Source of the DNA: Podarcis pityusensis
Taxonomy: Eukaryota
DNA: 64,000 nucleotides
NCBI GenBank assembly: GCA_964106645.2
Contig: OZ067041.1
Direction: 5' to 3' (one strand)
Below, piece by piece: positions 3,876 through 63,321 of this stretch. A program made the position numbers and the translations under genes. Each line of letters starts with the position of its first letter. Positions within the stretch are counted from its first letter, which is position 1. A model generated the notes under the pieces. That model had not been told where the DNA came from. It made no database searches and saw nothing but the letters and a program-made list of their open reading frames with translations.

Positions 3876-5989
3876 GTGCTGTGTTTTTACTTTTCTAATA
3901 ATTTCAGACACCAGATAACCACAACCGACTACCTCCAGATGGGTGACTCCTCAGACTAACAACCATTGCTCTTCCACATGTAGCTTACAGCAGGGATTGC
4001 AGTTGATTCTCCACAATATTTTGGATATTGCACCTTTTGTCTATCAGTGATGCAGCTTCCATGCGTCAGGGAAGTCTAGTTTACCTGTGTGGCCATTTGA
4101 AGCTCACTCTCAATATAATCTTTGCAGTTGGTGCCATGTTATCATCTGATTAATTTTCTTAATCAGCATTTTAATTAGCATGAAAACGCTTTTCTAGCTA
4201 TAATTCTTTTTTAAAAAAATAAGTGAATGAAACTGTGTTTATAGTGCTATAACACCTTTTAATGTTTAAAATGATTCCTCCCCCAAAATAACCCCCTGTT
4301 TTTTCATTACTATTTTAGTGCTGCTATTTTGTAGAAAGCTGGTCTGCCTATGTGCTAAGGAAAGATGGAAGACAGACAGGAAAAATACAGGGCAATGTCA
4401 TGGTACCAGGGCATCATGTGGCTGCTGTTTAAAAATTGAGCAAATGAAGCATGGAAATTCCACACTAAATGCTTAAACTGTATCCATATGAGGGAGCTAT
4501 GTTGCAAATAAGTCATTCAGATCCAAGAGTTAGATAATGTTGCTGTAAATTGTTTTGGAGATTCTGAGCTTACATCAGAAGTTGAGTTAGCTGATGGTAC
4601 TTCTGATTTTTTCCCCCTTTTACATTATTGATATTCGTTCATGTTATTATTGTGTTTGTACTTAAGCATATTATAATGTAATTGTCATGGCCTTTGGCTA
4701 TTATAGTAAGCTTATTGAATGCAGTGATCCAATTTTTCCTGTGTGTGAGATTGACGCATAGGGTGCCTCACACCATTTTTTTCATTCACCATATTCTTTG
4801 TTATTTCACTGCTTGTCATCCACCCCAGTGAGTGCAGCTTGACATAAAATTTCCTGGGTGTGGTTCTTTTCCTCCATTCAATCTGACACCACCACTAACC
4901 AGTTAATTTAGAGGATCAAAATGCAGAAATGTACAAGATCCATAATAATAAAAACAAACTAAGAATGGCTGTGAACTGGATTCGGCTGAATACTGAACTG
5001 AATCGGGAAGATCTGAGGCTTGTCGAAATCAGGTTGAGACAGCCTCAAATTGTTCCTGGTTGGGTCAATCTACCTGAGGTAATCCAGGGCTGTCAAAAGG
5101 CAGGGTGGTGGGTGGCAGGGGGAGGAGAAGGAGAGGCAGCCAGCCTCTGAACAGAGCAGTGTGTTGCTGTTTGCAAGAGGGCTTTATCTACAGATGGAAG
5201 AGAAACAAAAGAAACCTGATCTTGCCAGTGTTAGCCGACTTTGAATGCCAACATCTGAATCACCCCCTGAATGTGCATGAGAAATTTGTGGTGAAAATGG
5301 TCACGGTGAAATGTGAAGCAAATCAGAGGTCAAAGTGACTTGGAGACTTCTTTCCTAATCTACTCTGTCATGTAAACACTCAAGAACCCACTCAGTTTTT
5401 TGAAGGATGGTTTATTTCATTTTATATCATATGCTGCAAAAATTAACTGAGCTCAACAATCTTGGTTCTCAAAAGCCTTTTCAGCACTGGAAGAGAAAAG
5501 AGAAATGGGTGTTTTAAAAATCTCTTGAATATCATATTTTTCTCACATTGTCAGCTAGCAAAATGTCAGCTGAAAGTAAAGTCTAAATGTGAAATCAAGG
5601 CTTTCAGACTCTCTGTATCTGATTTCAGTCACATGCTCTCTTAGTGTGCCAGCACATCATTTTGTGTAAATGGACAAGGGTCTGGTCTGTACTCAAACTG
5701 AAGGCTGCCAAGAATAAACAGATGCTGTAGGATGCAGACATGTTTTTTTTCACTCTGACTCAGTGTGATATCAATGCCTGGCATGATACTAGTAGGCACC
5801 AATATATTTATAGATCCAATATATTTATTTCCAGTGCAGAGTTTGGTGTGATCCTCTTTGCACGTATGGAGCTCCTGCACATGTAAAAGCTTCTTTATTG
5901 ACTACAGTGTCCAGGATAGCTCCATCCTGTATAATGGGGGTGCACACTGGGGTCCCTAAATTACTGAGCTACTGGATCCACATGAATGA

Positions 5990-7152: not shown

Positions 7153-8428
7153 TCCCATAACAAACTGAAAATTTATCGATCATTTTCTGATAAAATTTCT
7201 GAGATAGTTTCCCACACACACACACACTCCTAGAAAAAGGTGACTGCAGAATTCTCTCTGAATAATGTCTGCTATGTTTTCATAGCAGTGTGAGGAGACA
7301 ATGTATTATTTAGCAGTACTGAAGATAAAGGTATATGGGTTAGACCTAGGAATGAGTTAAGTTTTGTCCTATGGTAAATGAAACATGAGGTGAAACTGTA
7401 TTTGATTAGACCTCAGAACTCTGCGAAGGTTATATTGTATGAAGGCCTGAATGCTAGCAGAAGCCGTGGTTACGGTTGCTAAGGAAGGAAACACCTTTGG
7501 CAGCTAGTAGTACTGAAAGTGAATGTCCCTGGTATTTATACTTATCAGGGGCATTAGAAAGGTTTAATCTGATTGGTGTTCTGAGAATCGCTTTTAAAAC
7601 CCCTATTGATCCTTGAAATAAAGGTCAGTAGAAGGGGGAACTGCAAGGTGGCCAGAGGCAGTGGTCAGTAAAGACTAGAAAACTAGAAGAAGTTATTTTA
7701 AGAGCCTTTTGGAGCTGGGGTCATGGAGAGAAGGGCCTGAGGACGGAAGACAGAAAGTTAAAGAAAACAGGAAGAGATAGGCAACAGAAAGCATAGTGTT
7801 CAAAAGCACAAGGCTGAGACAGAGAAGAAGACCCAGGCCTGAAGAACATCTAGAAGAGGAAGAACCAGAAGACAGCAGCTAGTAATAAAGAATTCCAGAA
7901 GAGATGGAAAGTGTTTTGTTGTTTAGTCATTTAGTCGTGTCCGACTCTTCGTGACCCCATGAACCAGAGCACGCCAGGCACTTCTGTCTTCCACTGCCTC
8001 CCACAGTTTGGCCAAACTCATGCTGGTAGCTTCAAGAACAATGTCCAACCACCTCGTCCTCTGTCGTCCCCTTCTCCTTGTGCCCTCCATCTTTCCCAAC
8101 ATCAGGGTCTTGTCCAGGGAGTCTTCTCTTCTCATGAGGTGGCCAAAGTATTGGAGCCTCAGCTTCACGATCTGTCCTTCCAGTGAGCACTCAGGGCTGA
8201 TTGCCCTAAGAATGGAGAGGTTTGATCTTCTTGCAGTCCATGGGACTCTCAAGAGTCTCCTCCAGCACCATAATTCAAAAGCATCAATTCTTCGGTGATC
8301 AGCCTTCTTTATGGTCCAGCTCTCACTTCCATACATCAGTTACAGATAGGTAGCCGTGTTGGTCTGCCATAGTCAAAACAAAAAAATTCCTTCCAGTAGC
8401 ACCTTAAAGACCAACTAAGTTAGTTCTT

Positions 8429-8468
8429 GGTATGAGCTTTCGTGTGCAAGCACACTTCTTCAGATACC
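8429..8468 (-). ncRNA. Minimal type I hammerhead ribozyme motif (PLE-type), antisense copy
   Basis: Reverse complement GGTAT-CTGAAGA-A-GTGTG(CTTG)CACAC-GAAAGCTC-ATACC; 5-bp stem I. Confidence 0.8.
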
Positions 8469-8472
8469 TTCT

Positions 8473-8510
8473 GTATCTGAAGAAGTGTGCTTGCACACGA
8501 AAGCTCATAC
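8473..8510 (+). ncRNA. Minimal type I hammerhead ribozyme motif (PLE-type)
   Basis: GTAT-CTGAAGA-A-GTGTG(CTTG)CACAC-GAAA-GC-TC-ATAC: CUGANGA and GAAA cores, 5-bp stem II, stem I GUAU/AUAC, and palindromic AGCU in place of stem III. Confidence 0.8.
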
Positions 8511-9438
8511 CAAGAACTAACTTAGTTGGTCTTTAAGGTGCTACTGGAAGGAATTTTTTTGTTTTTCCATACATCACTACTGGGAAAACCATAGCTTTAA
8601 CTATATGGACCTTTGTTGGCAAGGTGATGTCTCTGATCTCTATTAAATAAATCAGTTTCCATTACTGTATCTCCAAACATAGGATGCTGTGATTTATTCT
8701 AACTGTGGCTGGTTAACATGTGGTTGGTTTGAGCATGTTTTGTCTTAACTAATCACATTTAGACTAAACCACAGTTTCTTGAATGTAATAGGAAACTGTG
8801 AAGCTTTCAATCTTTTCCTCTTGTGTCTAAAAGAGGGAAGAAAGAAACAAGCAAATCTAAGGATTGAACTCATAATAATGTTTGTTGCATCTAAGCTAGG
8901 CTATTTTAGAACTACTTCTCTAAAGAATCAACCTGGTTTTTTCCAAATTAATTTTAGAATTTTTCACCAATTTTAAGAATTTTGAGAGTAATTTCAAGTT
9001 TGGCTTTTTAAAAATGCTCTCAATAAATTTATCATCTGAATTTCATTAGCCCATACTAGCCAAATTTGTTTTAATGTTCAACGGTAATCTAATTTCACTT
9101 CTATTTTATTTATAACCATTATTTATGATCAAGAAAAGTTTTTCCATGCAAGGATAGAAGACTAAATAAATCAAATTTTTATTTATAATCAGCATGCCGA
9201 ATGAAGCATCAGCTATAAATAAATTATACACTGCCTGTGTGTGTGTGTGGCTATTACAATGGTGCGTTTCCCAACAACTGTCTAAAAGTCTAGAGCAAGA
9301 AAATTCTAGCTTTAGATGTCCTGGTTTCAATAGCCAGATAAGCACATGCTCCAGAGGAAAAAGAAGCTCACCTTTCGGGAGGTGCAGTAGTTCACTGGTG
9401 GAGCACAGACTTTGATGAATCTTAGATGAATATGCATA

Positions 9439-10295
9439 ATGACCGCTCCCCGCTTAAAACGGGGGGCGCCCTTTGCGTGGACGCGCGCAGCCCCTAGATC
9501 TGGAGCGGCTCCAACAGCATAGGCTTGGTTTGCCTTCCCTCAGGTGGGATACCTGGAGGCCTCCGCCTACCTCAGTCAGTTGTCCAATCCCACCTGGGGG
9601 AAGCATTGCCAAGGAGACCAGGCCAGGTAGGGGAGGGATTACCTGCCCACACAATAGAGGGAGGATCTTACCTGGGAATCCTCACTTGGCTCCAGAGCTT
9701 CTCCCACCCTACCCACCCTCAGTTAATGTCTTATTTGCAGGTTAACTTTTCTTCACAGGTTTTGCAGGTTAACTTTTCTTCGCAGGTATGCGGGCGCTGC
9801 TACATTAAGGTCGCTGTTAAAGGGCCGGAAAGGAATTTCCCTGCATTGGCAGGTTTCGCCTTTCCCGTAGCAAAATGTCACAACTTTGGCGGTATCAGGC
9901 CTTGGGCGGAATCTTTTAGTCCATCTTCCTCTTTGCGGCGGCGATACCAGGGTCCCCCTTTAAAGGGGTTTCTGAAGGGAGGCTTTGACCGTACGCCGAA
10001 AGGTCGTCATTGCTCTCCCCTGCGGCGGCGGCGTAACGGGGGCGGCTATCTCTGCTTGAACATATGTTCTCCAGAGCCGGCCCATCCCCCCCCCACACTG
10101 GATAACCCTGATGCTCCTTAGGTCCCCGGCTGGGGACTGGGGAGGGAGAACGCCCAATGCCTGAGCCAAGGTCTACCCACATTTGAAATTTAATAAAGTT
10201 GTGGCCAATTTAATCCCATAGCACGTTGTCATGAGTCGTTATTCCACATGACGGGGGGACCGCGCGGGATCTGGGGACTCCGCCTGTCCACGCAA
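9439..10295 (+). mobile_element. GC/CpG-rich non-autonomous element, tentatively DIRS/Ngaro-like (copy 1, most intact)
   Basis: Sharp GC/CpG contrast with flanks; imperfect ~29-bp inverted repeats TTTGCGTGGAC...CCCCTAGATC (from ~9471) and GATCTGGGG...GTCCACGCAAA (to 10295); AATAAAGTTGTGGCC near the 3' end; core shared with the copies at 47297 and 53170; no TSD seen; appears to split an old Squam3-like SINE (about 9382-9415 and 10296-10400). Superfamily assignment is inference. Confidence 0.6.
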
Positions 10296-10424
10296 AGTTT
10301 GAGGGTCAATCTCTAGGAACAGCAGTTAAAATACAAACACACCCAGAAAGAAAATTTGGAGAAGAGTCCTTGCCCAAGAGCTTGGGAAACCATTGCCACT
10401 CACAAGAGTTGCAAGAAAACAGTT

Positions 10425-10720
10425 CAGAACATAAGAGTAGCCTGCTGGGTCAGGCCAATGGCCCATCTGGCATCCTGTTCTCACAGTGGCCAACCAGATG
10501 CCAAATGGGAAACCTGCAAGCAGAATTCAAGCATAGAAGCTCTCTTCCCTCTTGTGGTTGCCAGCAACTGGTATTCAGAAGCATTATCGCCTTCAACTGT
10601 GGTGGCAGAAGAGAATCATCATGGTTGGCAGTCATCAATAACCCTCCATGAATTTGTGTAATGCTCTTTTAAAGCCATCTCAGTTGGTGGCCATTTCTGT
10701 CTCCAGTGTTTAACTATGTG
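10425..10720 (-). mobile_element. CR1-type LINE 3' end
   Basis: AGAACATAAGAGTAGCCTGCTGGGTCAGGCCAATGGCCCATC...CATCCTGTTCTCACAGTGGCCAACCAGATGCC, the typical reversed reptile CR1 3' terminus. Confidence 0.7.
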
Positions 10721-47296: not shown

Positions 47297-47820
47297 TGTC
47301 AGGAGGTCCGCTCATCCTCATTGGTGGGCAGTGTTGCGGCCAGGCCCTGAACCCATAAGAAATCCAACAAATGGTAGGCCAGATCACCCAGCTGCTGGCT
47401 ATTGGCCAATGCTGGCTGCCCTTGGATGGGCGTTCCCCTGGCAGCGGGCCAAACCAGCCAATGGGGATGCTTGGGCCCACTCCCAGGGGTCGTTAAATTG
47501 CAGCCTGCCCTGCAGTCTTTCCTTCCTTTTTTGTCGGATCTCCTGCCCACCCTCCTTCATTCTGTTTGCTTTTACTTGTACTTTGACCTTGCTAAGGACC
47601 AAGTCGGCCACCATATTCAGGGCTGGGCAGGAATTTTCCCATTTGGCAAATTGACACCAGCCATCTGGTTTTTGCCTACCTTGTAGCAATTGTCACAACT
47701 TTGTAAGGCTGTTAGGCATTGGGTAAACCTAGATCTTTGGTGGAGGGGAGGTGGTAGTAGCCTCTGTCTGCCCCTCCTTTGGAAAAAGGGTATCCAGTTA
47801 AAAGGATCTGGATAGGTCAC
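47297..47820 (+). mobile_element. DIRS/Ngaro-like non-autonomous element (copy 2, 3'-truncated)
   Basis: Shares TTGACCTTGCTA, GGCAGGAATTTTCCCATTTGGC and GGTTTTTGCCTACCTTGTAGCAATTGTCACAACT with the copies at 9439 and 53170. Confidence 0.55.
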
Positions 47821-49743
47821 TTTCTACTTTACTCTAAGAAGCTATTTTTTTGTTTCCTGGAATGGAATAGAGAGCTACGCATAAACATCAGTGGAAATTT
47901 AATGCCACTGGGATTGATGTTCATCTGCCATTGTTCCCCACAAACCCCCAAAATGTAAATGGCCGAAAACAAAAATGGAGAAAACAAAAATAAAACAGGA
48001 CAAATGGAACTGAGCATACTCGATGGGCTCAGAACGTTGACTGGCTTTTGTGGAAGGGAATCAAACCTGGAGAGGGATGGTGGATGGAATTCTAAATGGA
48101 AGCACTTCACAATGCAACATGAATGCCATGAAGTACCGCCTAACTACAGAGGTGCTTTTCTCTTTTTTAAGGCACAAATATTACTGGTAAGGGTTGAGAG
48201 TGCTCTAGCTCTAATACTGACAAAGCTTTCCAAGTGCCTCTGCTTATGTAGTGAAAATAAGAGGGAGGTATTGTCCAACTCAGGGTGACTCAGAGGTTTG
48301 CAGAAGTATGAAAAACCCCTATTGGGGCCACCTCAAAACAACCCCATAATAATTCAGTGGAACAGAACATGGAGTGACTGAGATCACAGTATTAATTTTG
48401 CAATCAATCAAACCATAGTTTGGAAAGTAGTCTGAATTCAGGCTATGATTTTATGACTCCACCTACAGATATAGGCCATGTCCCTGCCCTGTTTCCAAGA
48501 TCAGGAAGCCAACTTACAGAATCCTTAACCAATTTTGTGTAGTATAAAGTTCTATACTGAAGACATCTGGAAAAAGAAAGCAATCAAGATCCTACCATAC
48601 TGCTAACTGTATTTACACAGTTGTAGAAAAAAAATTGTAAAGTCAGTTCCACTACAGCTGTATCATAGATATAGATGTGTATGTACACACACGCACACAC
48701 ACACAATTTTTATTTTTGTGCTGAAATCTAGGAGGTAGAATCTTTCATTAAACAGAGTTACGCAAAAATAAATCATTTCCCCAGTTTGGTTATGGTGGAC
48801 TCAAACAGAGATTTCACAGCTTCCTAGATCCTTTCAGTTAGCCCTTTGGCACAGCTCTCCCAGAGTAGTGCTTGGGAACAAAAATAGAGGATATGATTGA
48901 TGAACCTGAAGAAAACACATAGGAAAAGGTGCTTTTTAGACAATAGCAATAAAAACAAAATGAAAGTACCGTAGATCATTTTAGCTCAGCTTCAGCTCTG
49001 TTTTAAATTATTTACAGCAATCTATAGAAGCATTAGCAACCACCATGAGAAGCAACCACTATGAAAAGCCGAACTCACAGAGTTAGCGTTAGAATTATTG
49101 AAAGAACCAAATACTTTAAATAATTTTTGCTCCAACATTTCATAAGTGAGAATGGTTACCTTTATTCCTAGGCAAAAGCTGTGTCTGAACAGCTACACAT
49201 AACTATTTTGTTTTAAAATGTAGACTACTGTGCACCTGGGGAAACTTCACACAGAAGCGACTATGGAACTGATATTTAAAGAACTTGGCTGTAGTGTCAC
49301 AAGCCAAGCCAATAGATGTCAATCTAAAGTCTATGGAGAAAAGCAAGTTAACGACTCAGAGAAACATGCTGGTTCTGTGTATTGCCCCCCCATACCCCCC
49401 ATACAAAAAATATTACTGATTCCTTCCTGAGAAAATCTAATTCCACAAAATCACTATGTTCAAGATGCTTCTTTTAATTCTTAAAATAAATTGAGATAAC
49501 TTAGCTGCAAGCAAAATGAGACCTGCTGTTATGTGATAATTATTAAATGGCGATCTTCGTAAGTTTTTGCTCTTTAACGGGTGTTACATTCAAGGATTAC
49601 CTTGGATGCCTTATTGATAATACCTGTTGTAATGAAAATTGCATTTATCAAGTAACCAATTTTCATGTGAAATGGGACTTTAGGTAGCTTAGCTTGATTG
49701 GCTAAAATAACAAGCAGGCTCAGATGCTGCTAGGCCATTAATA

Positions 49744-50883
49744 CAGTGGTGCCTCGCAAGACGAAATTAATTCGTTCCGCAAGTTTTTTCTTCTTGCGAG
49801 TTTTTCGTCTTGCGATGCACAGTTTCCCATAGGAATGCATTGAAAATCAATTAATGCGTTCCTAGGGAAACCGCTTGCCAGGCTGGCGGTGCGGAGAAGG
49901 GCTTTTCTCCCCACCGCAAGCCTTCAGGACAGGTACGGGAACAGAGGGGAAGGCGCGCAGCGCTTTCCCTCTGTTCCCGGGGCTTGCGTGGGAGGAGGGT
50001 TTTTCCTCCCCACCGCCAACATTAAGAACAGCATTCTGAATGTTGGCGGTGGGAAGGAAAACCCTCCTCCCACCCCAAGTCTTCAGGAAAGCCATCCGAT
50101 GCCGGGCGGCGGGAGAAGGTGTCCCCCCCCCGCCCGGCACCGGAGCTTCGTTCCGATGCCGGGCGGCGGGAGGAGGCGTTCCCCCCCCCCCCGCCCGGCA
50201 CCGGAGCTTCGTTCCGATGCCAGGCGGCGGGAGGAGGCTTTCCCCCCCCCGCCCGGCATCGGAGCTTCGTTCCGATGCCGGGCGGCGGGAGGAGGCGTTC
50301 CCCCCCCCGCCCGGCATCGGAGCTTCGTTCCGATGCCGGGCGGGGGGGGAGGAGGCATCCCCCCCCGCCCGGCATCGGAGCTTCGTTCCGATGCCAGGCG
50401 GCGGGAGGAGGCATTTCCCCCCCCCGCCCGGCATCGGAGCTTCGTTCCGATGCCGGGCGGAGGCGTTTCCCCCCCCCCCCGCCCGGCATCGGAGCTTCGT
50501 TCCGATGCCGGGCGGGGGGGGGAGGAGGCGTTTCCCCCCCCGCCCGGCATCGGAGCTTCGTTCCGATGCCGGGCGGCGGGAGGAGGCATTTCCCCCCCCC
50601 GCCCGGCATCGGAGCTTCGTTCCGATGCGGGGGGGAGGAAGCGTTCCCCCCCCCCGCCCGGCATCGGAGCTTCGTTCCGATGCCGGGCGGGGGGAGGAGG
50701 TCCGAGGACAGTGGGGAAGACGCGCTGCGCTTCCCCGCTGTCCCGGAGATTTCCCTATGGGCTTTCGTCTTGCGAAGCAAGCCCATAGGGAAATTCGTTT
50801 TGCGAAGCGCCTCCAAAACGGAAAACCCTTTCGTCTAGCGGGTTTTCCGTCTCGCGAGGCGTTCGTCTTGCGGGGTACCACTG
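49744..50883. mobile_element. Non-autonomous Tc1/mariner (pogo/Tigger-type) element with hairpin-rich interior
   Basis: 22-bp TIRs CAGTGGTGCCTCGCAAGACGAA and TTCGTCTTGCGGGGTACCACTG (2 mismatches); TA TSD at 49742-49743 and 50884-50885; subterminal TTCGTCTTGCGA repeats; no transposase. Confidence 0.9.
50095..50700. repeat. ~59-bp palindromic GC-rich minisatellite, 10 full units plus a leading half unit
   Basis: Unit Cn-GCCCGGCATCGGA-GCTTCGT-TCCGATGCCGGGC-GGCGGGAGGAGGCRTT; ten copies of the GGAGCTTCGTTCC core counted. Confidence 0.95.
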
Positions 50884-52395: not shown

Positions 52396-53169
52396 GAAGT
52401 AGTATCCTTCCCCTGTTTTACTGGACTTCACTGCAGGTTTTACTCAGTTTCTGAGCAATCTGTGATAAACTTCCAAGTGATTCAAGGATATTCTCTAAAT
52501 ATATGGATAGCATTACAGGCAGTAGGCACAGGATTGGGCAAGCTCACACATACTGTATATCTTTAATACTGAGGAAAAAATCAAAAACTATATTACTTTT
52601 GCAATGTGCATAATTATTTCATGGCAGTAGATGTACAATACTATGCAGTTCATTTAAAATTTGGTTTATTTTCTTCAATAGTATTGATTTCATCGGTGCT
52701 TAGTTGCAAAGAAAGAGACCATTAATAAAGGGTCACTTCAAATTAGCCACTTAAAGTTGCACCACAAGTTATACCACATATACAAAGTTAAAACAGTAAA
52801 ATGTGCTTGGTTCACATACAAAAAAAAATGTTTTATTAATTTTCTAGTCTGCAGTTAGAAACTGAAAGATGCTAGATAAATTTCTGAAGAACATGCTCAG
52901 CATAATAAATTATATTTATGAGGTAATTAAAGATAGTGTATGTATTTTCTTTGTTTTTATCAAAACAGAATACTGAGGATCATGTAAAGGACAGAAAAAT
53001 AATAATGTCATAATTAGTTGGAAAATGAGATTGCAGTGAGCTGAAAATGCCAGGGTTTCCCATGTACAGAAGTAATAAAGTCATTTGAGATTAAGTAGAC
53101 CACAACTTAATTGATTACAGATGTAATATGGTTTTGGCTTATGTATTGGGTATGCATCCTGAATCAACC

Positions 53170-54165
53170 ATCCTGTTATTGGGGGGTGGGGTCCTGAGGC
53201 CTGTCAACCCCTGTATGGGTATTTGGACAGAGGCACTCCCACTGGACTCCTTTACCGGAGTACCCTAGTTCTCAGAGTGGGAAAGGGGCATAGGGCTCTG
53301 GCCCACCACCTTCCTAAACTAAGGATGTAAGCCAATGCCTTATCCACCAAGCAGTTGTGACAGTTGTGTGTTCAGACCCAGAGACCTCCCCCCTAAATAA
53401 ATACACATTTGACTCAAATTTTAGTTTTGGTTTTTGGCAGAATTTAGGCCACAACTTTATTGATTACAGAAAAGTGAGTGGTTGCATAGGCTCTGGTTCG
53501 ACTAGCTCCCTGCACTGTTGCAGGCAGTGCTGACCCAGGGCACCAGCAAAAGTCAGCCAAGGGTGAACACCTGTGTAGGCGAAAAGTCCGGGAACAGACT
53601 CTGTTCACTCCCCAGATGCTCTTCTGGACCCAGGCATGGGCACAACCCCCTCTTGGGAGTTGACCAAACCAAGTTGAGTCCCTGGATTCCTTTAACGGAA
53701 TACCCTTCACATAGGGATGGCGAGAGTGTTCTCCCATCCCTATCACCTGAACCAGAGCCTATCCGCAACCTTACAAGTTGTGATGATTTGCTACGCGGCA
53801 GGCGAAACCCAAATGGCAACAGCCAATCAGCCAAATGGGGGAAATTCCTGCCATGCCCCTGTCCCAATGACAGATGACACACAACGGCATAGCAAGGTCA
53901 AGCACACAATGCCCTAAAAGTAGGGAGAGGTGGGCGGGTGTTCTGATGCACGAGCCGAAAGAGGAAGCTCTGGGTCACGTGCATGGGTATATATAAATAG
54001 GTTCCTTGATCTGTTTAGACTGCACCCCATTGGCCAGATTAAACCCAGCAATGAGGGACCTACCAATCGGGTGTTGTGGCTGTCCAGTATCCCCATCCAG
54101 AACCAGGAGGTCAGTCTTCAGGTCTCACTGCAACACGTGCCCTCTTTTAGGGAGGATACAATTTG
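53170..54165 (-). mobile_element. DIRS/Ngaro-like non-autonomous element (copy 3) plus a partial repeat of its internal segment
   Basis: Minus strand has AATAAAGTTGTGGCC (~53445-53462), the shared structured core (53776-53900) and imperfect terminal inverted repeats (~53364-53390 and ~54106-54134); TGGACTCCTTTACCGGAGTACCCT (~53243) recurs as TGGATTCCTTTAACGGAATACCCT (~53683). Confidence 0.55.
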
Positions 54166-54324
54166 CCATTAGGTAGACAAAACCCCAGACAGGCCCAGTT
54201 AGACTGCAGGTAAATTTGAATATGGCTTTGAATATGGTGACTGAATTGATCCATTGCAAGGTTTGCACAATGCAAGCCCCACCCCTTCACCTTCACAGGC
54301 TGCTCCCCAACATAAAGGCAGGAC

Positions 54325-60500: not shown

Positions 60501-63164
60501 GTCTGAGGTGGGTGAAATATGAAAAAAATATGGTGAAAATGATATTGAATTTCCCTATGCCTTTGGATTCATTAGCAGAAAATGTCAGCAGGATACCCTT
60601 TAATTTTTGCTACTCATGGCATCACCCATAAAATAATCCTTTTTGTACATGGGCTAAATCTTTTTCTGTTCTACCAAGCTCCCTGCTACAGCCAGTTTCT
60701 TGGTAATTACATGAGTGCAGACAAGCTGGAGACAGGTGGATTTAAGGCCAGCTGCACGATTTGTTTTGCACAGCACTGGAGCGAGGGAGAAAAGCTTGTT
60801 TTTAAAAAAACCCAGTGAGGGAAACAGCTGTCTTCTCTGAGCCTCCCAGTTGCTGCCTTAGTTGGTACTGGCGTAGGGCAGAGCATGAACTAGTGCCAGA
60901 TACATAGTGTGAGTGGGAATTAGCTGATTGTAGTTCTGATATTTTCTTGGCTGCCTGTTAACTGATTTTGTTTGGGACTGGGAGGGCCATTTCTATTCTT
61001 AGGGAACTGTTTGCATCAAGGGTACAATCTCCTTTTTTGGATAACCCTCCAAATAGATATTCTGTCATGTCACTGCCTTGGCTGCTTGATTTGTGCGGAG
61101 GAAGATAGAAGCTTTCCTGCATGGAAATGAAGCATTTGGGGGATGCCTATGAAGTTTAAGTGTTAGACGAATTTGGTTTTAAACTGGATAGTATTCTACA
61201 CAAGAGATTTTTATCAGTTAATAAAAAATGGTCTTAACACAATGCCTGTAAGTACTACTTGCCATAGCTTAAAGTGTGTGTATGTGTTCCTTCATGTGTG
61301 GAGAAAAAGTACAGTGTTACATTTCACAATATAAACATACTTCTCTAACAGCACATCTGTAAAGGATAAATGAGGAATCAAATATATGCATTATTATTCA
61401 CAAAAGTTAAGATACACCTTTAGCTGCTTCCATGCCTGTAAGATGTGGGAGACCGGCCAAAATTGCACCTGGATACTGCCACTTTATAGCACCACCATAT
61501 AATATAGATATTTAATGAAACCAGTCTTGATTTGGAGATTGCCACACCGGAGCCCCGACTCAGGACTAGGAAATGTTTCTGTGTGGATTGCATTTTGAAA
61601 GTTGCAAAACAATTTGTGCTGAGTTTATGTGATTGCCAGGTGGCTAGCTGTTTTGTGTCAAACAAGATGGCTGGCTGTTAACATAATGCTTATGTGCACT
61701 CTTGGGAAGCTCTCAACATAGCTTAATGTAAATACAGTAAATTTTCTCATGCCAAGCTGCACACCATAAAAATGATGGAACAGCTTTGTCCTTTAGTTTG
61801 ACAGATGCGAGACATGCTTTAATTTTCCGGCTTAAATAATTGAGAAGGTATATACTATTGTGCAGTATTTATACACAGTTCAATCTTTTATTATTACTGT
61901 TTTCGTTAGTATAATTTAAATCCGGTTCTTAATTGTATTCAGTCTTTCCTTCATTGGATTCTAACTGGCATCCATCTACTGTCACAAGACAATGGGCTTT
62001 TACCCGACCAACAACCACCAGTAAAATTGCAATGTGCACAGTTTTTCTGAAGCATAAAAATGTTCAAGTGATGTTTCATCACAGATAGCTTGTGGATTTT
62101 GAGTGGCAATCAATGTCTTTCTTCTTGTGTGCCTGCTTTTTCTATAGTTTCAGTCTGATAGCAAGAGCTGGTTCACAAAGGCATGTTCCTCGCTGGATGA
62201 CAGTACATGTGTGAATAAGACATCCTAGATATAACTCCACAGGGAGTGTTTTAATATTTTCACAGGTGCTACTTTTTAAAATGTTCTTCATTGTAAAATG
62301 GGGGATAAGCAGTTGTTTCTGAACTGTAATAGCTGGGGTGGAAATGTATTGGACAGTAACTCCTCATATATTGTCTAGTCACCGATAAAATGAGGGTTTG
62401 ATTATTGTATAAAAAGGCATTGCCGTGAGAAAGTGAAAATGATCTGCTTCATCACTTCAATAAACTGTCCATAGGGAAATGCATTTATCCCACTTGTAGG
62501 GAAACCTTACTTCCATTTGTTCATTGAACTAGAATGTTGAAATAATGATTGTTTTCCTGATTATGTAAATGTACAACAAAAACAAAAACCCATCACTTCC
62601 TTAATTTTTGGTAAATATCCATGGACTCATAAGATGACATGGATAAGAAAAAAAGCGGGTGGGGACTATCAAACCAGCTCACCTGAATCTAAAACCAACA
62701 CACCATCTGGCAGACAGAATTCCTCCCATAGGACCCAATATAACTTCAGCAAATGCACTTTATTGTATTTAGGGGATAGTTGTGGAAAGGGAAACATTTT
62801 AAGTTGTCAGTTCTTTCATAAATGTCTTGTACGTGCTTAGGCCTGCAGCTTTAGCTTTAAGGTCCAAGGACAGAACATGTGCATGCTTCTGTAAAAATTG
62901 TTTCAATTTCTAGGTAAGGAGATCTACTCAAAGCCACATTATTGCATTTCTGTCAATTAGCACTGAGGTGGAACACAAGATAAACATTGACTATTTTAAA
63001 ATGCATAAACAGAGGGGGAAAGAAAGTGAAAGGGGGAAGCATGATTTTAGGTCTACTACAGGGTAAATATCTGTCCTTATATTTCTTCTCTGTAATAGTA
63101 TGGAACCTTCTTATTAAACAAGGATAACAATGAAAACTGAATAGAAAACTATTTGCATCAGCCA

Positions 63165-63321
63165 ATCTTGTGGCGCAATGGGTCAGCGCATCTGGCTGTT
63201 AACCAGAAGGTTATTGGTTCAAGCCCACCCAGGGACAGCTGTGGGCAGGCTTCCTGCATTTCAGGGACTTGGACTAGATGACCCTTTAGATTTCCTCCAA
63301 TTCTAGAATCCTATGGTTCTA
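63165..63321 (+). mobile_element. SINE: tRNA-Asn(GTT)-derived head fused to a CR1 3' tail
   Basis: 63165-63236 TGTGGCGCAATGGGTCAGCGCATCTGGCTGTTAACCAGAAGGTTATTGGTTCAAGCCCACCCAGGGAC is collinear with vertebrate tRNA-Asn (anticodon GTT at 63198-63200); followed by TTCCTGCATT...TTGGACTAGATGACC...CCAATTCTAGAATCCTATGGTTCTAT. Confidence 0.85.

Follow-up and report, generated by a model that had tools for sequence, protein, structure and literature searches.

The question raised by this locus is what three divergent repeats without open reading frames have in common, and why they keep it. They lie in a 64,000-nucleotide stretch of Podarcis pityusensis DNA (contig OZ067041.1; below, the window), and according to the original prediction, made from the letters of the window, they share a functional cis-acting fold, possibly a ribozyme or a nuclease-resistant RNA. 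We refer to them as elements 1 to 3 in the order of their positions.

The G+C content of the window is about 40%, and long coding frames are absent. It carries what we take to be an RTE-BovB-like fragment and Sauria-SINE-like copies. At 8345–8560, adjoining the end of the RTE-BovB-like frame, there is an inverted pair of short fragments, presumably resembling the terminal repeats of Penelope-type elements, and within it, at about 8478–8510, what we assume to be a hammerhead-like minimal core; no Rfam match at the gathering level was found in this region. The GGAAGGAATTT strings at 8384–8394 and 8546–8556 are not further copies of the module described below, the remainder of which is absent there. 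A G+C-rich tandem array with a unit of about 58 bp occupies positions 50095–50700, and a tRNA-like match at 63164–63237 (41.6 bits) is possibly the head of a SINE.

The boundaries of element 1 come from four public sequencing runs laid on positions 9300–10450. A contig of the empty site joins 9437 to 10294, omitting 856 bases (two letters are ambiguous). The insertion, element 1, is 856 bp long, overlaps AA and made no target duplication, its limits being 9438/9440 and 10293/10295; an early assignment of its end to 10307, with an AAT duplication, was discarded because of the empty-site contig. The element has the following general features.

9440..10293, plus strand: element 1, a repeat without open reading frames; ends overlap AA (9438–9439 / 10294–10295), no target-site duplication
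9444..9468, plus strand: terminal hairpin with a TTAAAA loop, seen as a DNA fold
9471..9508, plus strand: subterminal imperfect inverted repeat, partner at 10260–10297 (79%), score reached by 5 of 500 shuffles
9955..9968, plus strand: internal hairpin with a TTAAA-type loop, also found in elements 2, 3 and 4

In one run, 11,704 contigs fall on element 1. Their summed depth, about 2.4e5–1.4e6 where the flanks have 101, gives no copy number but indicates that the family is highly repeated. RNA reads on the element number 135 of 12.8 million in run X23 and 23 of 11.0 million in run X21, in both directions, and 65–78% of them run on into unlike sequence; neither an element-initiated transcript nor piles of starts or ends were seen in these reads, and the sequencing-run search yielded no RNA run among the matches listed. 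The open frame at 9498–10118 matched no longer protein, and no frame with a Pfam match was found in the window elements. Some copies carry a 40-nt insert with a 5-nt duplication at 9925–9929, and RNA reads also run off at 9929. Upstream of the module, at 9736–9786, a pyrimidine-rich unit is tandemly duplicated and ends in CAG like a splice acceptor, with a donor-like GGTATG after it.

The stems of the module are exactly where they had been placed. The inner stem pairs GGAAAGG (9827–9833) with CCTTTCC (9859–9865) in element 1, GGCAGG (47626–47631) with CCTACC (47675–47680) in element 2, with one C-A mismatch, and GGCAGG (53852–53847) with CCTGCC (53802–53797) on the minus strand in element 3. 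The outer stem TGCTA..TAGCA is present in all three elements, as claimed. The inner stem, here P3, needs a correction in its length, which is 7 bp without an indel in every copy. The shared TTGGC motif stands only in part: in elements 2 and 3 the first TTGGC belongs to a stem, and it is ATTGG that stands in the apical loop, with ATTGA instead in element 2. The string TCACAACT is common to all three elements.

By modelling, the fold is larger than originally described, as it forms a three-way junction of the helices P1, P2 and P3, where P3 opens into an internal loop closed by P4. P1 is TGCTA(C) with (G)TAGCA; the internal loop has AA-U3-4-(C) opposite U3-5-(C)G; P4 starts as CC paired with GG and continues into free sequence. 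In the coordinates of element 1, the parts are as follows.

9798..9803, plus strand: 5' strand of P1, pairing with 9867–9872
9809..9826, plus strand: P2 side hairpin, 9809–9812 with 9823–9826, a bulged G and further pairs
9827..9833, plus strand: 5' strand of P3, 7 bp with 9859–9865, pair probability 1.0
9834..9839, plus strand: 5' side of the U-rich internal loop, AAUUUC, unpaired probability 1.0
9840..9853, plus strand: P4 hairpin with an apical AUUG loop, from folding
9854..9858, plus strand: 3' side of the U-rich internal loop, UUUCG, from folding
9859..9872, plus strand: 3' strand of P3 followed by that of P1, from stems, alignment and folding

The module was further suggested to contain a pseudoknot of GGGC with CCC and GGC of the loop. 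This is unsupported, because P2 and P4 use the same bases: GGGC is the 3' strand of P2, which covaries, and the CC after the first U-tract pairs with the GG before the second one. As a separate observation, the apical loop (9845–9849) could form 5 bp with 9876–9880 after P1; this pairing involves G-U in element 1, A-U in element 2 and another register in element 3, and is not general among the relatives.

Conservation of the module is well above that of its surroundings. A descriptor of the core (GG-AA-U3-5 ... U3-6-(C)G-CC with at least six of seven flanking pairs) has three matches in the window and none in any of 40 block-shuffled windows. In 60-nt windows the module forms a conservation peak with z of 10–17 relative to shuffles, most other windows staying below 3; outside the conserved peaks, the second of which is the AATAAA region (z 8.4), the three elements are unalignable. 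In the MAFFT alignment of the three copies, 52 of 54 cells are paired and four of 20 pairs show double-sided changes, of which P3 has three and P4 one; each of these values was reached by one of 500 shuffles, which with n=3 is not a formal significance test. Slid controls on the same alignment gave 33–56% paired. With P2 included, 19 of the 21 variable cells pair and six columns have double-sided changes, and a P value that includes P2 and P4 is inflated because the registers of these two helices were picked for best pairing. The conserved pairing and covariation bear out the predicted cis-acting fold, and we are highly confident that what is conserved here is a genuine structure of the single strand.

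In elements 1 and 3 and in L032, a related locus introduced below, the predicted probability of P3 is 0.99–1.0 and most U are unpaired. For a second related locus, L065, the prediction of the U-loop is weaker and P1 is lost, and in element 2 neither P3 nor P1 is formed in a 310-nt context. The two G-C pairs of P3 adjoining the loop are invariant in five of five loci (the window copies, L032 and L065), and an invariant AA stands between them and the 5' U-tract.

Variants within the family of element 1 fall on the same fold. The family base at 9804 is G (A>G in 11/11 reads of X23 and 98% of X1 depth), adding a pair with C9866 to P1. The common variants 9839 C>T (13/26 X23 reads) and 9857 C>T (11/26), at positions that are often U, lengthen both U-tracts. 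The variant 9863 T>C, seen in 8/26 reads and at 9% of X1 depth, would disrupt an A-U pair of P3, and no compensating change of the partner was found among 40 of the 139 variant rows.

The module copies outside element 1 and the elements that carry them are listed below.

47590..47700, plus strand: module of element 2; the element spans about 47297–47830, its AATAAA block and P5 partner being missing
53776..53894, minus strand: module of element 3, from stems, folding and model
53365..54160, minus strand: element 3, approximate ends, with AATAAA at 53461
54150..54259, minus strand: fourth module, decayed, 24.5 bits and E 0.0024 with model R1
53090..53360, minus strand: downstream half of the fourth element, with TCACAAC, P5, the TAAA hairpin and a decayed AATAAA block

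What was taken for a single element starting at 53170 on the minus strand is in fact two elements, one inserted in the other. Element 3 lies inside an older relative; its insertion truncated the fourth module at the 3' end and parted it from the downstream half of that relative. The insertion is at AA directly before TGTCACAAC of the older relative (53345–53370, 54150–54175), and this placement may reflect targeted insertion into the element's own kind. Upstream of its module, element 3 has CCAAT-, E-box- and TATA-like motifs.

Downstream of the module, the elements share a long-range helix, P5, and a block with AATAAA.

9895..9908, plus strand: 5' arm of P5, 13 of 14 Watson-Crick pairs with 10151–10164, none of 2000 shuffles as good, pair probability mostly >0.9
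10151..10164, plus strand: 3' arm of P5, partner of 9895–9908
53762–53749 with 53499–53486, minus strand: P5 of element 3
9879..9887, plus strand: CACAACTTT, complementary to 10195–10203, overlapping AATAAA
10192..10206, plus strand: AATAAA-GTTGTGGCC, block with a putative poly(A) signal, 327 nt downstream of P3

P5 is a 14-bp helix found at the same place in elements 1 and 3 and in the downstream half of the fourth element, 17–21 nt after TCACAAC and 21–34 nt before GTTGTGG. The number of its Watson-Crick pairs is 13, 14 and 11, respectively; among 2000 shuffles, none did as well for the first two, and 24 did for the third. Pairing holds in 38 of the 42 cells, and six of the 14 columns have double-sided changes (permutation P 0.0006 and 0.007). 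The truncated element 2 lacks the partner (7/14). As modelled, P5 closes off a loop of about 240 nt, and the AATAAA region would then come to lie next to the junction. The CACAAC/GTTGTG pairing has a predicted probability of 0.17 in element 1, 0.48 in element 3 and 0.98 in the fourth element, and gives no covariation evidence because it is invariant. The AATAAA lies 327 nt from the module in element 1 and 334 nt in element 3, and the block presumably directs polyadenylation. Within the L032 locus no AATAAA follows the module, and in L065 it occurs only after 955 nt.

As to their class, we tentatively read the elements as probable solo A-B units of Ngaro-like tyrosine-recombinase retrotransposons (A1-ORFs-B1-A2-B2). 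Such elements make no target duplication, as in element 1, a trait common to Helentrons, and in a solo unit a half with promoter-like motifs is expected to precede one with a poly(A) signal, the order seen here. A contig of run X1 (depth 22.6, against 101 in the flank) joins the 3' end of element 1 at 10293 to its 5' end at 9439, with one other letter; it may represent a tandem copy, an internal B-A junction or a circle, and is also consistent with the Ngaro-like class. The AATAAAGTTGTGGCC block is, we assume, linked to Ngaro. On the other hand, the window copies have no reverse transcriptase/RNase H or tyrosine-recombinase frame and no repeated A or B, no autonomous parent of element 1 was found in the run contigs or by protein search, and the halves of element 1 are about 440 and 410 bp, compared with 236 and 152 bp in what the source gives for Xenopus DIRS-53_XT.

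A non-autonomous Helentron is a distinctly weaker candidate, to which we give perhaps a quarter of our credence. The hallmarks of HLE2/HINE, in the part of the literature consulted, are asymmetric inverted repeats of 11–18 nt, a terminal stem-loop and T-T insertion. On the minus strand, element 1 has an inverted repeat at one end, with the partner about 33 nt from the other, and its terminal hairpin and insertion at TT without duplication match as well. However, the inverted repeat of element 3 is not significant (180/500 shuffles), and the window elements contain signals of the RNA type. The consulted part of the HELIANO data has hits in two of four reptile genomes, all of them HLE1, and lists no HLE2 for the four. 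The Ngaro-like class seems more likely than the Helentron. Parts of bioRxiv 2021.08.05.455354, PMC11417382, PMC4067079, PMC6681497 and PMC5753468 were used as further sources.

Relatives were looked for outside the window with a pattern scan, which gave 47 metagenome loci and 18 loci in viral contigs. These 65 preselected loci were scored with model R1, for which the three window copies alone were used. The fold is in none of the 18 viral loci; 45 of the metagenome loci are chance-like and two were kept, L032 (43.4 bits, E 2.6e-7) and L065 (37.9 bits, E 5.8e-6), the E-values being rough and the best score among the other 63 loci being 20.1. Both share P2, P3 and the U-loop with the window copies, the helix sequences being different, and both resemble DNA of a vertebrate host. 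The frame upstream in these loci gave no Pfam match at the cut-off and no longer homologue; eight of its 17 short hits were looked up and are unnamed. Decayed tandem repeats of the 3' half of the module are seen downstream, at about 790–1030 in L032 and 4150–4460 (minus strand) in L065.

The second group of relatives is formed by CR1 LINEs of fishes. In Supplementary Table 2 of PMC13343379 (at least 951 rows), the search covered the first 400 nt of each consensus. In the portion of the table covered, ggaatttt occurs in nine rows and tttttcgc in ten; the four with both are all fish CR1 (AlbGor_CR1-1, AldAff_CR1-1, MegCyp_CR1-1 and PolSen_CR1-2). Read by eye, these de novo and possibly chimeric consensus sequences have P1, P2 and P3 of other sequence and an AA-U4 / U4-5-CG loop. 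Two of them were parsed pair by pair: P3 is GTGTGGG/CCCGCAC in the bichir CR1 and GAGAGGG/CCCTCTC in the tarpon one, and in both P2 retains the bulged G and a 4-bp stem is followed by a second symmetric loop, U6-7/U6-7. The bichir CR1 has neither CCC after the U-tract nor ATTGG. The module stands in the first 400 nt of a consensus of 4.6–5.8 kb, far from the tail. The original prediction placed a similar motif in the 3' UTRs of reptile CR1; sharing of the module with CR1 is supported, by eye, in the first 400 nt of these four fish consensus sequences. One CR1 consensus in the consulted part of PMC4316615 keeps TTTGCCTTCCTCTG, similar to the 3' half of the module, in its 3' UTR, which is a hint only; the CR1 alignment from the same source (Suh 2014) is trimmed at the boundary of ORF2 and the 3' UTR.

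The two-sided U-rich loop, missed originally, points to an element of the ENE type. According to the sections of PMC7583470 and PMC13541005 consulted here, an ENE is a U-rich internal loop adjoining G-C pairs and flanked by short helices, which binds poly(A) through U-A-U triples and A-minor contacts and blocks deadenylation; a double ENE has two U-loops separated by a short duplex. In transposable elements, the same sections place ENEs in plants, fungi, slime mould and stickleback retroviruses, and further mention viral ENEs and MALAT1-type helices of vertebrates. An ENE raises RNA stability and transposition of the Arabidopsis element Evade (PMC12501189, consulted in part).

On balance, we lean towards reading the module as a putative ENE-like element that stabilises RNA by a triple helix with poly(A), because compensating helices surround fixed two-sided U-tracts and fixed G-C pairs. 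A two-sided U-loop flanked by helices is present in the predicted folds of elements 1 and 3 and L032, and G-C pairs stand beside the loop, though AA intervenes before the 5' U-tract. The window copies have one loop and not two, elements 2 and 3 keeping a 2x2 pyrimidine loop above it. The module departs from known ENEs chiefly in its short U-tracts (3–5 in the window copies), in the additional AA and, in CR1, in lying at the 5' end.

The proposed mechanism would be as follows. Transcription would proceed on the module strand, as the promoter-like motifs upstream suggest, with polyadenylation probably after AATAAA. P5, perhaps together with CACAAC/GTTGTG, would bring the 3' end beside the junction, and in the RNA of the element the module would hold the poly(A) tail in U-A-U triples, slowing its removal. 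The loop could accommodate three or four triples, supplemented by A-minor contacts to the G-C pairs that are invariant in P3. A scaffold or an end pocket might be provided by the P1/P2 junction together with the bulged AA and (C)G, both invariant. As the fold occurs in unrelated types of elements, it would likely act on RNA decay of the host rather than on an enzyme of the element.

An alternative is that the fold serves as a recognition signal for proteins of the element itself, in packaging or in strand transfer by the reverse transcriptase, at the boundary of the repeat halves by TCACAAC. Indeed, the module ends at this conserved TCACAAC, where element 3 entered its older relative, the P1-P2-P3 arrangement is more elaborate than a minimal ENE, and the Ngaro literature, in the part consulted, requires annealing between repeat parts in replication. 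Nevertheless we consider such a signal unlikely, since the same architecture is found in CR1 LINEs, with different proteins and a different replication route, and two-sided U-tracts are unnecessary for this role.

Slightly less probable still is a translation or export element of a 5' UTR, or a triple helix completed by an A-rich stretch encoded in the genome instead of the poly(A) tail. In elements 2 and 3 the module follows the CAGAGCTTC/CAGTCTTTC block behind TATA-like motifs by about 80–105 nt, in fish CR1 it is within the first 400 nt of the consensus, and A-rich linkers are present in element 1 and the fish copies; but the P1-P2 linker of element 3 has no A-run, the A-run after P1 is only 2–4 nt, and the window elements, as noted, have no frame with a Pfam match.

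Conservation at the DNA level, by transcription-factor sites or by single-stranded folds read by a recombinase or a rolling-circle Rep protein, is improbable. All window copies contain GGAATTTCC, which we take to be kB-like, and what is presumably a CCAAT box, and the ends of element 1 are HLE2-like (inverted repeat, terminal hairpin, TT/AA target). However, double-strand sites leave the compensatory changes unexplained, the bichir CR1, as represented in its source, keeps the fold without CCC or ATTGG, G-U pairs are kept in the plus sense and the plus strand folds more stably in all three copies, and the HELIANO data cited above give only HLE1 where reptiles have hits.

Finally, the pseudoknotted ribozyme or nuclease-resistant RNA of the original prediction is very improbable: GGG upstream and CCC after the U-tract are indeed present in all five loci, and the 5-bp apical-loop pairing is possible in the three window copies, but both strands of the pseudoknot are occupied by the covarying P2 and P4, the bichir CR1 lacks CCC, RNA starts and ends form no piles, and an Rfam search with E as high as 10 gave nothing across the module (only two sub-threshold hits in element 1, upstream of the module, and, at the gathering level across the window, nothing except one tRNA).

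We return to the ENE-like element. We found no description of the module in the mostly open-access literature covered on ENE, CR1 and Ngaro, and Repbase, Dfam or the ENE papers of 2016 and 2021 may record it. More speculatively, and with considerable doubt, poly(A) clamps built on a three-way junction may be spread across vertebrates, from bichir to lizards, and passed between LINEs and recombinase-type elements, so that the 5' UTR of CR1 would catch the tail kilobases away, looping the RNA, while in lizards P5 would deliver the tail. If this is true, junction-embedded ENEs in amniote repeats and CR1 LINEs would mean that vertebrate retroelements broadly counter deadenylation by structure and that the module moves between classes of elements, and the 5'-located version would be a new geometry, with capture of the tail across the whole RNA. 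The fold is about 75–120 nt long and comes with natural compensatory variants.

Compared with known systems, the module has the U-loop, short helices and adjoining G-C pairs of ENEs and double ENEs from transposable elements (Tycowski, Shu and Steitz 2016; TWIFB1; Evade), as far as the consulted parts of the sources describe them. The setting, a mobile element with a putative poly(A) signal further downstream, is comparable, and two of the fish CR1 relatives likewise have two U-loops split by a short stem, as in double ENEs. It differs from them in being embedded in the P1/P2/P3 junction with a covarying long-range helix downstream, in the invariant AA before the 5' U-tract, which is not described in the consulted sections of the reviews PMC7583470 and PMC13541005, in the amniote host, and in the position near the 5' end in fish CR1. 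Unlike the KSHV PAN ENE and the MALAT1/MEN-beta triple helix, the module has 3–5 U per side and is part of a dispersed repeat, and, unlike MALAT1, it has no long genome-encoded A-tract and is not followed by a tRNA-like element (no Rfam match at 9400–10320). At the same time, it shares with PAN, MALAT1/MEN-beta and the MALAT1-like vertebrate loci a lone U-rich loop, slightly bulged on its 3' side, and a purine-rich lower stem.
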